Positions 45,112 to 51,339 of a stretch of 64,000 nt of DNA are shown piece by piece. The stretch is taken from positions 284,623 through 348,622 of the forward strand of contig CAWJIA010000012.1 in NCBI GenBank assembly GCA_963842805.1, read 5' to 3'. The position numbers and the translations under genes were made by a program. Within the stretch, counting starts at the first letter, position 1. Each line of letters starts with the position of its first letter. The notes below the pieces were generated by a model. The model had not been told where the DNA came from. It searched no databases and saw nothing but the letters and a program-made list of their open reading frames with translations. Source of the stretch: an uncultured Chloroflexia bacterium (lineage in GTDB: Bacteria > Chloroflexota > Dehalococcoidia > GIF9 > UBA5629).

Positions 45112-45798
45112 ATGGAAAAATCATATACCATGCACGATTTGCCCAGGTCCGAGAGGCCGCGTGAGAGGCTGCAGAAACACGGCACTGAAGCCCTTTCCAC
45201 AACGGAGTTGCTGGCGCTAATCATGGGCAGAGGGACCAAGGGACAACCGGTCATGATGGCCGCTCAAACGTTACTCGCCAGGTTCGGCAGCCTGCAAAAT
45301 ATCGCTTCGGCATCGATAGAAGAGCTATCAAAAATAAAGGGCATCGGCCCGGCCAAGGCCTGCCAGATCAAGGCCGCCCTCGAGCTTGCCAAAAGGGTGG
45401 ATGACCCGGATTATAAGAAAAGCGCACCTGTAAAATCACCCGAGGAAGCAGTAGCATCTATCAGGAGCACGCTCAAGGGTAAGAAAAAAGAGCATTTTTA
45501 TCTCCTCTGCCTGGATACCAGAAACCATGTGACCAATGTCGACCAGATCTCAGTGGGAAATCTGGACAGCAGCATCGTCCATCCCCGGGAGGTGTTTAAA
45601 ACAGCCATTTCATGCCTGGCTTCCTCCGTTATTTTCGTGCACAACCATCCCTCCGGTGACCTGGAGCCGTCATCAGAGGATATAAATCTTACCAAACGTC
45701 TGACTGAGGCGGGTGAACTGCTGGGCATTCCCGTCCTTGACCATATCATAGTCTGCGATAAAGACTTCACAAGCTTGAAATCAAGGAATTTAATTTGA
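45112..45798 (+). CDS. radC: RadC-family JAMM-motif protein
   Basis: N-terminal helix-hairpin-helix region, then the JAMM motif HNHPSGDLEPSSED. Confidence 0.85.
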   Translation: MEKSYTMHDLPRSERPRERLQKHGTEALSTTELLALIMGRGTKGQPVMMAAQTLLARFGSLQNIASASIEELSKIKGIGPAKACQIKAALELAKRVDDPDYKKSAPVKSPEEAVASIRSTLKGKKKEHFYLLCLDTRNHVTNVDQISVGNLDSSIVHPREVFKTAISCLASSVIFVHNHPSGDLEPSSEDINLTKRLTEAGELLGIPVLDHIIVCDKDFTSLKSRNLI

Positions 45799-47448: not shown

Positions 47449-47883
47449 ATGGTAAACAAAAATGCGCTGGAAGCTCCCTGCGGCATTCACTGCGGCCTGT
47501 GCCCGCTGCATCTAGCAATTACGGACGAGGCCTTAAGGAAACGCCTTGCCGAGCGGTTGAATATGCCGCCCGACAAGGTGGTCTGCCCGGGCTGCCGGGA
47601 GATCGACGGTTTCTGCCCCGTAATCTCGGAGCAATGCGCCACCTGGCTGTGCGTAAAGAAAAAGGGAGTCGAGTTCTGCTGCGAGTGTGCCGAATTCCCC
47701 TGCGTTAAGCTTGCACCCTGCGCCGATAAAGCATCGCTGCGCCCGCACAATATCAAGGTCTATAGCCTGACACTCAGAAAGAATAAAGGGGCTTACGAGT
47801 GGAGCAAGGCCATCGAGGAAATCTATAATCTTTACTATAAGGGCGAGATGGTTATCGGCCATGGCCCCGTACTAAAAAAATAA
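47449..47883 (+). CDS. Cysteine-rich protein (DUF3795-like), paralogue of 27035..27274
   Basis: 144 aa with 15 Cys. Its N-terminal CGIHCGLC matches the CGIACEKC of the other copy, and downstream it has a CPGC plus CCEC pattern. Confidence 0.5.
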   Translation: MVNKNALEAPCGIHCGLCPLHLAITDEALRKRLAERLNMPPDKVVCPGCREIDGFCPVISEQCATWLCVKKKGVEFCCECAEFPCVKLAPCADKASLRPHNIKVYSLTLRKNKGAYEWSKAIEEIYNLYYKGEMVIGHGPVLKK

Positions 47884-47891
47884 TTTCTTTT

Positions 47892-49514
47892 TTATCCCCA
47901 GAGATCATCAAGATTGTCCGTCTTGCGCGGGCTATCGCCCGATGACGACGGGCCGAGTTCCTTATAGGAATCAGCCGAGCCGTATTCCCTGACCCTAACC
48001 ACCACCGGCATGGGTAGAGCGTGGCCGAAGATGAGGGCTTGCTGCTTCGACTCAAGCTTGGACAGAACCGCTTTAAGCTCGCTTTTACCCGATACGCCGG
48101 TCAGCACCGTATCCACGTCCTTTTCATTATCCAGCAGGCAGGTAATCTTGGTGCCAAGCTGCGACATCACCTCTTCATCGATGCCGCTGGGCCGCTGATC
48201 GATGACCAGCATGGTCACGTTGTACTTGCGCATCTCACGGGCGATCTTGCCGAAGATGGTCTGCGAAGAGATCTCGGGATTGAGGAACCTGTGTGCCTCT
48301 TCGATGGTTATCACAAGCTGATCCGGCTTTCTGCTGTCGGCCGAGGTTGCGATATCCACCATCTCCCTGTAGAGGTTGTAGATTCGACGGGTAAGCAGGT
48401 TGGCCACCAGCACATAGGCAGCTATATCGTCATAGCCGCCGAACTGAAGAACCACGCTCTTGCCGTGGCTGATGTAGTCCAGCATGCTCTTGACGGTATC
48501 CTCCGGCGCGTGCGGCACCAGAAATTTGAAGCGCTGCAGCATCGTGAGCCCGCGCTGCAGGTTCTTCCAGGTGCTTTCAGCAATATTGTGCTTGCCGGCA
48601 AATTCCTTGTCGCCGCCTTCAAATAAATCCAGGGTTGACTGCAGCCATTTATCGTCCCCGAAATACCTGGCCAACTCGTAGACCGCCTGCACAGCAAGGT
48701 CGGTGAGGTTGAGCACGCTACGGAGCATTTGCATGTCTTCGGGTTCGATCTCATCGTAGCCTATCTTGACGACGAAATCGGATTTTACCTTCCTGCGCTG
48801 GTCGTATTTCTCGTCCAGGGAAAAAACCGCCACCTTGCCCGGGAAAAGCTGCTTCAAACCCTTGACTTTGTGGTCCTTCTCGCTGGTGCCCTCCCAGCCG
48901 TATTCATTGTGCATATCAAAGATCAGGCTGGTGGTCCGGCTTTTCTGCAGCATGCCGATCAATAAAAGCCGTGTAAGGAAGGTCTTGCCGGTGCCGCTCT
49001 TGCCGAAAACGCCGTTGGACCTCTTGACCAGCTCCTCCATATCCAGGCAAATGCGGGTCTCCATATCCAGCGGAGTGCCGACATAGAACCGCTGTTTATC
49101 CTCCTTACCGAAAACCATTTCAACGTCGGACTGCGAGGCCAGCTCCACCCCGGCGAAGTGAGGCGGCACCGTTTTGGCGGGTTGCGGGCCTTCAGTAGCC
49201 CCGGCTATGCCGCTGATGGTAAGCATGGGTAAAACGCTCAGTTTGCCGTAGGTGGTCGTCCCGGATACTACTTTGGCTATGAAAGGGTCGGATATATCGG
49301 GGGGCATGACCATAGCGCGGGGGTCCACCGCCTCCAGGCTGATATCCGTAATCATGCCGAAGAAGCGCTTCTTTTCGCCCTGTATCGCCACATAGCGCCC
49401 TACCACTACGTCCTCTACCGATCTCGCTGGGTCCAGCTTCACATGCACGCCCTGCGTCAGGGACCCGTAGATTACCGTGCCCAGCCTTAAATTCCCTTTC
49501 TCGTTTTCTGTCAT
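47892..49514 (-). CDS. HerA-family FtsK/HerA-superfamily ATPase (DUF87)
   Basis: The N-terminus is HAS-barrel-like (RLGTVIYG...GRYVAIQG). Walker A is GKSGTGKT and Walker B is HerA-type (VITIEEAHRF). Length 540 aa. Confidence 0.75.
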   Translation of the reverse strand: MTENEKGNLRLGTVIYGSLTQGVHVKLDPARSVEDVVVGRYVAIQGEKKRFFGMITDISLEAVDPRAMVMPPDISDPFIAKVVSGTTTYGKLSVLPMLTISGIAGATEGPQPAKTVPPHFAGVELASQSDVEMVFGKEDKQRFYVGTPLDMETRICLDMEELVKRSNGVFGKSGTGKTFLTRLLLIGMLQKSRTTSLIFDMHNEYGWEGTSEKDHKVKGLKQLFPGKVAVFSLDEKYDQRRKVKSDFVVKIGYDEIEPEDMQMLRSVLNLTDLAVQAVYELARYFGDDKWLQSTLDLFEGGDKEFAGKHNIAESTWKNLQRGLTMLQRFKFLVPHAPEDTVKSMLDYISHGKSVVLQFGGYDDIAAYVLVANLLTRRIYNLYREMVDIATSADSRKPDQLVITIEEAHRFLNPEISSQTIFGKIAREMRKYNVTMLVIDQRPSGIDEEVMSQLGTKITCLLDNEKDVDTVLTGVSGKSELKAVLSKLESKQQALIFGHALPMPVVVRVREYGSADSYKELGPSSSGDSPRKTDNLDDLWG

Positions 49515-50104
49515 GGCTGTAGCCTCTTCAAAATGGAGTCCAGCCTCCTTATATCGTTGCTCAGGGTCCAGGCCAGCTCCTTGCCAGCCTTAATTAAGAA
49601 TTCCTGCGGCTCGGTTTGCATAAGGCTGGCATAGCGCAGAAAGGCGGCGATGACCTCATCCGGTGCAACGGTCGACCGGCTTTCTATTATCAAATTCAGA
49701 AAATTCAAAGACTGCGTGAATTGCTTCACTTCGGCTGGACTGCAGGCATAGACGAAGGAATAAATCGATGCCGGGGATGGCGGCAGGTACTGGCGAATGG
49801 CCTTACTCTGGATATGGCCGACAACCAGGGCCTTGAAATCGGAGCACAGCAATTTAGCCAGCTGCGGGTTGGCCTTAAAAACATCGGCCTCCGAAGTGGC
49901 TGCTTTTCCGCGGGCCGCAATCCGCCTGCCCGGCTCTATGCTGTGCGTAGCTGAGACGTACACGATGCCGTATATCTGACAGTCTTTGCCTTTCGTCTTG
50001 ACCATACTGCCCAGCGCCGGAACGTTATTCAGGTCGTAACATTCGGCCAGGAATTCCGAATTGCTGGTTTCGATTACCTCGGCGATCTTCTGTTCTACAC
50101 CCAT
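49511..50104 (-). CDS. Hypothetical protein, translationally coupled between NurA-like and HerA genes
   Basis: 197 aa with no recognisable motif. It overlaps the upstream gene by 10 nt and the downstream gene by 4 nt. Confidence 0.4.
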   Translation of the reverse strand: MGVEQKIAEVIETSNSEFLAECYDLNNVPALGSMVKTKGKDCQIYGIVYVSATHSIEPGRRIAARGKAATSEADVFKANPQLAKLLCSDFKALVVGHIQSKAIRQYLPPSPASIYSFVYACSPAEVKQFTQSLNFLNLIIESRSTVAPDEVIAAFLRYASLMQTEPQEFLIKAGKELAWTLSNDIRRLDSILKRLQP

Positions 50105-51339
50105 TTTATCTTCTTGCTCCTTTGCTTCAAGGACTGTTGGACTGTCAAACTGCCCTCCTGCATGACCCGGTCTACCAGGTCCCAGAACTGCTCACGGTCG
50201 GCGCCCGTGACCACCGCCTGTTCGTGAGCTTCGCTCAGCGAAACCGGGTAACCGAAGCCCTTATGGCACTGGTCTACTATCACTGCATGTGCAAGATCGA
50301 GCAGCTCATTGTTATCAGCTACCCAGAGCGGGACCTCCACCCTGGCCACCTCTTCATCCAGTTTAATATAGAAAAAACAGACTTGATGGACACCGTATCT
50401 CTCAATTATCGACGACCGGCTGCTGAATACCGCCGACCTCTCGCCTTCGGACAGCATCCCGGCGAAGACAGCCCTATCTAGCGGCCCGCCCACCACATCG
50501 CATTCCCGGCCCTCGAATTTACCCTTGCAGTGTTTGTCGCAGTCCACAGGATCGTAAGGGCATACTTGCAGCCGCAGCACATTTACTACGTCGGTGCTGC
50601 GGGGGAAACTGATATAGCTGGCGATAGCCGCCTTCTTTTTCCTGTTCAACTCGTAAAAACGATCGAACTGTTTGAGCCAACCCTCATCCAACAACTGCTG
50701 CACGATAAAATCGTCGTAGCGCTGTCCGACCAGGCCCCACATGATTAATGAGCCGTCGACCAGCCCGACTACGGGCAAATTAGTCTCACTGCCGCATACC
50801 CGGTCGGCCAGGCTGCGGCATTCTTCTACCCCGCGTTTTATGCCCAGCAGCGGCCCCTCGATAAGGGCCTGTTTACCGTCATTTGACCTGATGGTCTGCA
50901 TCTCATCGCCGAAGTAAAGGGTTGGCAGGCTCAACAGCTCAGCATCCGGCTTACTGCCGTATTGCAGTTCCACCAGCCCGATATTCAGCAGGAAGAGCCG
51001 TGTGGAATGATGTCGGTCCACGTCGATGTGCGACCCATCGCTGGCAACGACCATGAAATTTACGGGGCATGGCACCGCAGCCTTGTGCAGACTCATATCC
51101 TCTTTCAGGCCGGCCACCAGCCAGGTAACCCTGGCATCCTCTATCTTCTTCTTTAGCCTGTCCTGGTGAGGCGGTATCGATTTTAAGGTAGTCAGTGCCA
51201 ACTCTAATTTTTGGGCGTAGTCAGACTGGTGCGACTTTAAATCCCCCGCCATAGCCTCGATCTGACTGTAGACCTGTGTGATATCAAGCGTCATGGTTGT
51301 TGGAAGCCTTAGTATAGCACGGCATCCATAGGCTAACAA
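50095..51339 (-). CDS. NurA-domain 5'-3' nuclease-like protein
   Basis: NurA-type motifs are present: VVASDGSHIDVD (DGS motif I), GLVDGSLIMWG (DGSL motif) and a C-terminal GYPVSLSEAH. It is paired with a HerA ATPase, as in archaeal and Deinococcus herA-nurA loci. Confidence 0.6.
   Translation of the reverse strand: MLAYGCRAILRLPTTMTLDITQVYSQIEAMAGDLKSHQSDYAQKLELALTTLKSIPPHQDRLKKKIEDARVTWLVAGLKEDMSLHKAAVPCPVNFMVVASDGSHIDVDRHHSTRLFLLNIGLVELQYGSKPDAELLSLPTLYFGDEMQTIRSNDGKQALIEGPLLGIKRGVEECRSLADRVCGSETNLPVVGLVDGSLIMWGLVGQRYDDFIVQQLLDEGWLKQFDRFYELNRKKKAAIASYISFPRSTDVVNVLRLQVCPYDPVDCDKHCKGKFEGRECDVVGGPLDRAVFAGMLSEGERSAVFSSRSSIIERYGVHQVCFFYIKLDEEVARVEVPLWVADNNELLDLAHAVIVDQCHKGFGYPVSLSEAHEQAVVTGADREQFWDLVDRVMQEGSLTVQQSLKQRSKKIKWV

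Follow-up and report, generated by a model that had tools for sequence, protein, structure and literature searches.

A gene between nurA and herA

The 64,000-nt stretch of contig CAWJIA010000012.1 analysed here (the window) comes from an uncultured Chloroflexia bacterium of the class Dehalococcoidia and carries on its minus strand a gene for a 197-aa protein, here named X, between nurA and herA. Structural work on NurA and HerA of archaea, Deinococcus and Thermus has dealt with a two-protein machine composed of a hexameric motor and a dimeric nuclease. The system in the window is a NurA-HerA cluster with one extra gene, which the systems described from Deinococcus, Thermus and archaea lack, and X is in our view a probable third subunit, so far undescribed, of this machinery for the processing of DNA ends. 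A preliminary description of the window had placed an orphan open reading frame (ORF) at 49511-50104 between NurA-like and HerA-like genes. The ORF listing of the window and the Pfam matches of the two neighbours confirm this: the ORF starts with ATG, and its translation includes the peptide quoted before, IAEVIETSNSEFLAECYD...GSMVKTKGKDCQIYGIVYVSATHS. Both junctions are overlaps, as had been stated: the X start codon (50104-50102) lies 10 nt within the end of nurA, whose TAG stop codon occupies 50097-50095, and the TGA stop of X (49513-49511) shares 4 nt with the ATG of herA (49514-49512) in the sequence ATGA. The HerA encoded in the window consists of an N-terminal barrel of its own (a weak HAS-barrel match in Pfam) and a DUF87 P-loop ATPase; it is also matched by NCBIfam HerA models, PADLOC HerA models and HerA sequences in the PDB. 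The coordinates of all features are collected in Table 1.

Compared with two relatives at a synonymous divergence (dS) of ~0.6-0.7, X shows ratios of nonsynonymous to synonymous substitution rates (dN/dS) of 0.064 and 0.086. These values are intermediate between those of nurA (~0.1) and herA (~0.04), and the GC content at third codon positions (GC3) of X is 0.66, equal to that of nurA. A word-indexed search yielded 110 full-length homologues with 45-98% identity, nearly all of them 190-210 aa long. In an exhaustive profile search the family profile matched 1036 clusters (50% identity) at E<=1e-3 and 714 at E<=1e-10, and the length of ~190-210 aa is constant across more than 1000 clusters with several phylum labels. 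Scanning one genome per GTDB species, we found relatives of X in 291 species genomes, mostly Dehalococcoidia; the best 80 of these are all Dehalococcoidia or Chloroflexota metagenome-assembled genomes (MAGs). The scan, which is pattern-limited, used alignment A1, the broad alignment A2 being too divergent for this use, and the locus statistics given below rest on the best 80 species-level loci, in which distant lineages are under-sampled. Members with 28-35% identity to X include SAR202, and a search seeded with a 35%-identical member led to genomes labelled Candidatus Dadabacteria, 'Thermodesulfobacteriota' and Armatimonadota. No relatives were found among plasmid or phage collections.

Because of the dN/dS of 0.06-0.09, the neighbour-like GC3 and this conservation, X is a real and widely conserved gene; conservation and coding potential, on which the preliminary description had made its status as a gene depend, both speak for it. 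With 110 homologues, 1036 clusters and 291 species genomes the term 'orphan' does not stand, and it is apt only with regard to a described function: X belongs to an uncharacterised family whose members are named 'hypothetical protein' or, rarely, 'HAS-barrel domain-containing protein' (NCBI), and for which neither Pfam nor NCBIfam has an entry of its own. Literature searches on NurA/HerA in Dehalococcoidia or Chloroflexi returned no description of X or of a stand-alone HAS-barrel partner.

Fold and domain architecture of X

From the sequence pattern of its N-terminal part, a HAS-barrel-like or OB-like fold had been proposed for X. Searched alone, X of the window gives nothing meaningful in Pfam (no match even at E<=1), NCBIfam, PADLOC or the PDB sequences, and the family profile has no match among the PDB sequences. 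PF09378 (HAS-barrel) matches 24 of the 32 aligned homologues at E<=1. Six members (P0047, P0049, P0057, P0062, P0074 and P0258) reach 25.2-28.9 bits over profile positions 1-89 of 90, which correspond to residues ~6-99 of X; the Pfam gathering score for this family is 25.2 bits. X of the window is 59% identical to P0047, and HAS-barrel membership, which holds at the family level, can be carried over to it by homology.

An AlphaFold2 model of X was obtained from the family alignment with a mean predicted local distance difference test (pLDDT) of 91 and a predicted template modelling score (pTM) of 0.86. It consists of a beta barrel (strands within 6-55 and 86-104) that is broken by a loop and short helices (56-85) and followed by a short strand (117-120) and five helices up to the C-terminus. 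A Foldseek search of this model against the PDB gave 62 matches at E<=1e-3, and the best 50 of the 62 are all HerA-family chains, with E values of 2e-6 to 2e-4, a probability of 1.00 and query-normalised TM-scores of 0.35-0.50 over 131-142 aligned columns, gaps included. The matches comprise HerA of S. solfataricus (4D2I), the HerA-NurA complex of T. kodakarensis (9X1L), the D. radiodurans structure 7WRX and TdpA, as well as HerA of the SIR2 and DUF4297 defence complexes. A comparison with viral structures (BFVD) gave nothing better than E=0.04. The HAS-barrel-like assignment is therefore borne out by both the PF09378 matches and the structural comparison, whose best 50 matches are N-terminal domains of HerA only, and X has the HAS-barrel fold. 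The OB-like alternative can be dropped, as there is no OB-fold protein among the best 50 of the 62 PDB matches.

X is not a HerA: the defining ATPase is missing. Neither X of the window nor the 32 members match DUF87 or another ATPase, and by inspection X lacks a G-x4-G-K-[ST] Walker A motif. The stretch G59...G66-K67-A68 was considered as a Walker A and rejected, since it does not fit the motif and G66-K67 is lost in Dadabacteria-labelled members. When a profile of 436 X sequences was aligned by hhalign with one of the first 165 residues of the cognate HerA family, residues 5-140 of X paired with 9-145 of HerA, a range that covers the whole HerA module ahead of the ATPase core; at P=0.019 the alignment is collinear and sensible but statistically insecure. 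With full-length cognate HerA, hhalign returned a spurious C-terminal match only. Because X resembles the barrel of the cognate HerA only marginally in sequence, it is best regarded as an old, diverged paralogue of this barrel and not as a recent split.

Several segments are conserved throughout the family: GEVVES.T in the first strand, EPGRRP.A.G, PQL..LL.T.F, LPP.PP.IH.FVYEC and GKELA..L..DY.RL.SILRR. R60 in the loop inserted into the barrel is nearly invariant across 28-73% identity (alignments A1 and A4), and the linker of X aligns with the HerA stretch that leads from the barrel to the ATPase core. The helices of the C-terminal domain span residues 136-140, 148-160, 166-180 and 185-193 in the AlphaFold model. 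Residues 105-197 were also modelled separately (pLDDT 83); this model has no PDB structural match at E<1, and the C-terminal region is covered by no Pfam or NCBIfam family. The family defined by X thus contains a helical domain without a recognised fold. X is basic (isoelectric point, pI, 8.3), whereas NurA (pI 5.7) and HerA (5.8, and 5.35 for its first 140 residues) are acidic. In comparison with the N-terminal HAS barrel of HerA (PF09378; 4D2I, 7WRX, 9X1L), X has the same beta-barrel fold and family members match the Pfam model end-to-end; however, X is a separate polypeptide without RecA-like ATPase or helix-bundle domain and adds the helical C-terminal domain, which has no structural match, and the conserved basic loop. 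Taken together, X corresponds to a stand-alone version of the HerA N-terminal module (HAS barrel plus linker) that is extended by a family-specific helical domain of ~65 residues.

Table 1. Features of the nurA-X-herA locus; positions refer to the window.
Feature	Position	Strand	Remarks
gene X, stand-alone HAS-barrel protein	49511..50104	-	197 aa, 21.7 kDa, pI 8.3
nurA	50095..51339	-	414-aa ORF; PF09376 (Pfam), E 1.3e-21; upstream of gene X
herA	47892..49514	-	540 aa; PF01935/DUF87 (Pfam), E 9.6e-32; downstream of gene X
nurA end / X start overlap	50095..50104	-	10 nt, read from the sequence
X stop / herA start overlap	49511..49514	-	ATGA, 4 nt, putative translational coupling
Shine-Dalgarno-like AGGAG	50117..50121	-	12 nt 5' of the X start codon; consensus resemblance only
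HAS-barrel core	49793..50092	-	residues ~5-104; predicted strands 6-13, 17-22, 34-38, 43-55, 86-99, 102-104
basic loop inserted in barrel	49892..49939	-	residues 56-71, IEPGRRIAARGKAATS, pI 11.7; family motif EPGRRP.A.G
linker segment	49715..49792	-	residues 105-130, motif LPP.PP.IH.FVYEC...EV..F; P108 and P111 conserved
C-terminal helical domain	49514..49714	-	residues ~131-197; motifs DEL and GKELA..L..DY.RL.SILRR

Gene context and proposed role of X

The linkage of X with herA is conserved. In all 78 species loci with room for it, herA starts less than 600 nt past X; the contigs of the remaining two of the 80 loci stop 5 and 123 nt after X. Among the 65 species loci with a complete X-herA pair, 52 show an overlap of 4 nt or 1 nt, and because this overlap is conserved, co-expression of X with HerA is well founded. 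A nurA gene lies upstream of X in 62 of 80 species loci, and in 16 of the 18 loci lacking it the sequence upstream is shorter than 1.9 kb. An overlap of nurA and X by 10 nt, as in the window, occurs in 15 of 60 loci, closer relatives only; in 35 of 60 the two genes are separated by gaps of more than 200 nt, up to 3 kb, with unrelated genes inside. X thus shares both location and orientation with herA and nurA across divergent genomes (78/78 and 62/80 loci). An obligatory co-expression with both neighbours had been put forward; this is supported for herA but fails for nurA, given the long gaps. The median identity to the copy in the window is 50% for X, 50% for NurA and 65% for HerA, so that X evolves as fast as NurA and faster than HerA.

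Gene linkage persists in members with 30-35% identity and under other phylum labels. The distant loci L089, L092, L093 and L095 (L numbers designate loci and P numbers proteins) also carry the X-herA pair: L089 shows the order nurA-X-herA, and in L093 and L095 no nurA is found in the 2-3 kb shown upstream. In the metagenomic contig L094 (1424-8741) the genes nurA, X, herA, mre11 (Metallophos) and rad50 (SMC_N, with zinc hook) are tightly packed. The archaeal nurA-herA-mre11-rad50 operon contains the same four genes, which indicates the same end-resection pathway; however, as described it has these four genes only (PMC9960219; PMC5448004), whereas L094 has X as a fifth one between nurA and herA. 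In the window no mre11 or rad50 adjoins nurA-X-herA. Its flanks are ordinary chromosomal genes (secDF, the CCA-adding enzyme gene and priA), and those of the relatives are partly syntenic with it; these housekeeping genes are conserved, or vary in a manner consistent with vertical descent. A role of X in repair is favoured by the mre11-rad50 cluster of L094, the housekeeping flanks and the absence from plasmid and phage collections. With the two-gene NurA-HerA systems of Deinococcus radiodurans and Thermus thermophilus the locus shares the nuclease/motor pair, overlapping coupled genes and a housekeeping chromosomal setting. In Thermus and Deinococcus, however, nurA runs directly into herA, its stop codon overlapping the herA start (PMC5448004), whereas X intervenes in Dehalococcoidia and is itself coupled to herA.

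From these observations we propose, somewhat more confidently than not, that X belongs to the NurA-HerA end-resection machine as an accessory subunit and acts as an adaptor or regulator at the interface between HAS barrel and NurA. In the NurA-HerA complex of D. radiodurans the NurA dimer rests on a face made up of the six HerA HAS barrels, a finding that builds on work with the S. solfataricus proteins (PMC9960219). In both organisms the HAS-barrel domains of HerA are the NurA interface, and two-hybrid data map the mutually stimulating contact of HerA and NurA to the HAS domain (PMC9960219; PMC5448004). X resembles this docking surface in fold and is encoded beside both nurA and herA, and its basic character (pI 8.3) stands against the acidic one of NurA (5.7) and of the first 140 HerA residues (5.35). 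Since the HAS-barrel collar of HerA is the docking site of the NurA dimer, the barrel of X most likely binds at that interface and could contact NurA, the HerA collar or both. Docking of X on HerA, as suggested in the preliminary description, is plausible from the gene order. In the genome of the window X, NurA and HerA would be translated from one mRNA, and the overlap of the X stop with the herA start is consistent with X and HerA being made at a constant ratio. X could then couple or gate nuclease and motor, its helical tail may supply partner specificity, and the conserved arginine-rich loop could contact DNA or an acidic surface of a partner. It would thereby be the third component of a machine for the resection of double-strand-break ends, to which one lineage adds Mre11 and Rad50. 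Physical binding, stoichiometry, ring formation and an effect on activity are what we infer for X.

A number of observations weigh against this proposal. The HerA of the window keeps its own N-terminal barrel, and the need for a second one is not obvious. NurA-HerA of Thermus and Deinococcus functions without an X-like protein (PMC9960219; PMC5448004). Furthermore, X of the window itself has no Pfam match, and its profile alignment with the HerA N-terminus is insecure as described above. An Armatimonadota-labelled MAG (L088:5001-5591) carries X, and no nurA or herA is found up to 5 kb away from it; X is preceded there by genes for weakly ferredoxin-like proteins and a small membrane protein and followed by tsaD. 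Finally, in the predicted protein P0199 (372 aa, ENA metagenome), a singleton cluster, the C-terminal portion of NurA is followed in frame by a complete X; this may reflect a genuine fusion of the two proteins or an artefact of a frameshift within the 10-nt overlap. P0199 and a second candidate, P0212, were rejected as informative fusions because they are unreliable, P0212 being a chimera with a periplasmic binding protein.

If X is such an accessory subunit, it is the third protein of the system across the class Dehalococcoidia (291 species genomes, among them members of SAR202, an abundant marine group) and in Dadabacteria-labelled genomes. Because the conserved X copies precisely the HerA domain that is used for NurA docking, the interface of nuclease and motor is suggested to be built or regulated differently in X-bearing bacteria. 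With 22 kDa and the possibility of co-expression with HerA and NurA, X would also offer a simple handle on the recruitment and activation of NurA.

In three Dadabacteria-labelled genomes the arrangement is groEL...nurA-X, with an overlap of nurA and X of 1-4 nt and, at the locus, no herA alongside. Dadabacteria- or Thermodesulfobacteriota-labelled loci (L086/L087:3868-5567, L090:4829-6567 and L091:484-2183) have nurA-X downstream of groES/groEL, and in loci of this type a HAD hydrolase gene on the opposite strand comes after X. This layout suggests that a direct partnership of X with NurA may be no less likely than one with HerA. Two further explanations take this up, neither of which we regard as likely. 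According to the first, X forms a HAS-barrel ring of its own, a detachable collar that would be the true platform for docking and activation of NurA, stacked on HerA in Dehalococcoidia and motor-free in, for example, Dadabacteria. In that case a portable subunit of its own would take over the nuclease-docking role of HerA, and there would be a NurA-X nuclease that does not depend on HerA.

According to the second, X is directed at NurA as a decoy or chaperone with a surface resembling the HerA collar, which either holds NurA inactive until HerA engages or enables NurA to act without HerA; we estimate its chances to be as modest as those of a ring-forming collar. The coupling of X to nurA in the three Dadabacteria-labelled genomes with no adjacent herA speaks for it, as do the known ability of the HerA HAS domain to bind and stimulate NurA (PMC9960219; PMC5448004) and the evolutionary rate of X, which with a median identity of 50% equals that of NurA and exceeds that of HerA (65%). 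However, the invariant tight partner in Dehalococcoidia is herA, the gap between nurA and X is often interrupted by inserts, and X-herA pairs without nurA in the 2-3 kb shown upstream occur (L093, L095).

The basic character of X leads to another possibility, which appears quite improbable to us: X could mainly be a DNA-binding or end-recognition factor that uses its arginine-rich loop, perhaps as a ring of its own around DNA, and loads or positions NurA-HerA without being a stable subunit. Such a function would agree with the conserved EPGRRP.A.G loop and its pI of 11.7, with the overall basic nature of X next to two acidic partners, and with the DNA-sized pore formed by the HAS-barrel rings of HerA (PMC9960219). 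Against it, no known DNA-binding domain was detected in X by Pfam, NCBIfam or the structure match of its C-terminal part, and mutation of a conserved HAS-domain arginine in D. radiodurans HerA caused no defect (PMC9960219).

HerA chains of the anti-phage systems SIR2-HerA/Nezha, DUF4297-HerA and TdpAB are among the structural matches of the X barrel, and in these systems too a partner has been solved together with the HerA ring. NurA-X-HerA could be an anti-phage defence module with X as a sensor or adaptor, a reading that we hold to be very unlikely. HerA matches PADLOC HerA models, and the gap between nurA and X in relatives often holds defence-type or mobile genes (methylase-Mrr fusion, HSDR_N, MNT/HEPN). 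However, only the generic HerA models match HerA, and PADLOC has no match for NurA or X. The HerA partners in anti-phage systems are SIR2, DUF4297 or TdpB effectors and not a barrel protein; neither SIR2 or DUF4297 nor any other known HerA-partnered effector is present here. The distribution of X looks vertical and housekeeping instead: the cluster is found throughout a bacterial class beside conserved housekeeping genes, L094 links it to mre11-rad50, and plasmid and phage collections do not contain it.

That X is a functionless, decaying remnant of a duplicated herA 5' end, as its equivalence to the N-terminal module of HerA minus the ATPase might suggest, is effectively refuted by the strong purifying selection, the constant length of ~190-210 aa in more than 1000 clusters with several phylum labels, the conserved translational coupling and the conserved extra C-terminal domain.

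Insertions between nurA and X and further features of the locus

In Dehalococcoidia insertions recur at the nurA-X junction, with gaps of 0.2-3 kb. The inserts contain an N6/N4 methylase-Mrr fusion, HSDR_N, DUF2130, transglutaminase-like and beta-helix proteins; a further insert holds an MNT/HEPN toxin-antitoxin pair and an acetyl-CoA-synthetase-like gene. They are located at L061:3451-4713, L043:3181-3996, L069:3120-4226, L027:4164-4982, L039:618-1541, L072:1267-2202 and L092:2788-5735. A conserved fourth gene between nurA and X was considered and rejected, since the inserted ORFs are heterogeneous. Two near-identical contigs (L001:4749-5562 and L002:4753-5562) carry an ORF of ~270 aa with no Pfam match at this place; the L001 copy is split in two ORFs, which a frameshift may explain.

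Scans of the operon in the window for a promoter and a terminator gave results no better than shuffled controls. A GAGG sequence is found 8 nt 5' of the herA ATG. The nurA ORF is listed from a TTG codon (51339), but alignments with most homologues begin only at residue 16, and translation probably starts at the M16 ATG (51294), which would give a NurA of ~399 aa like that of most relatives. On the plus strand, a cysteine-rich ORF of 144 aa (47449-47883) converges on the end of herA, and a 228-aa ORF that looks RadC/JAB-like by eye (45112-45798) lies ~2 kb past it.

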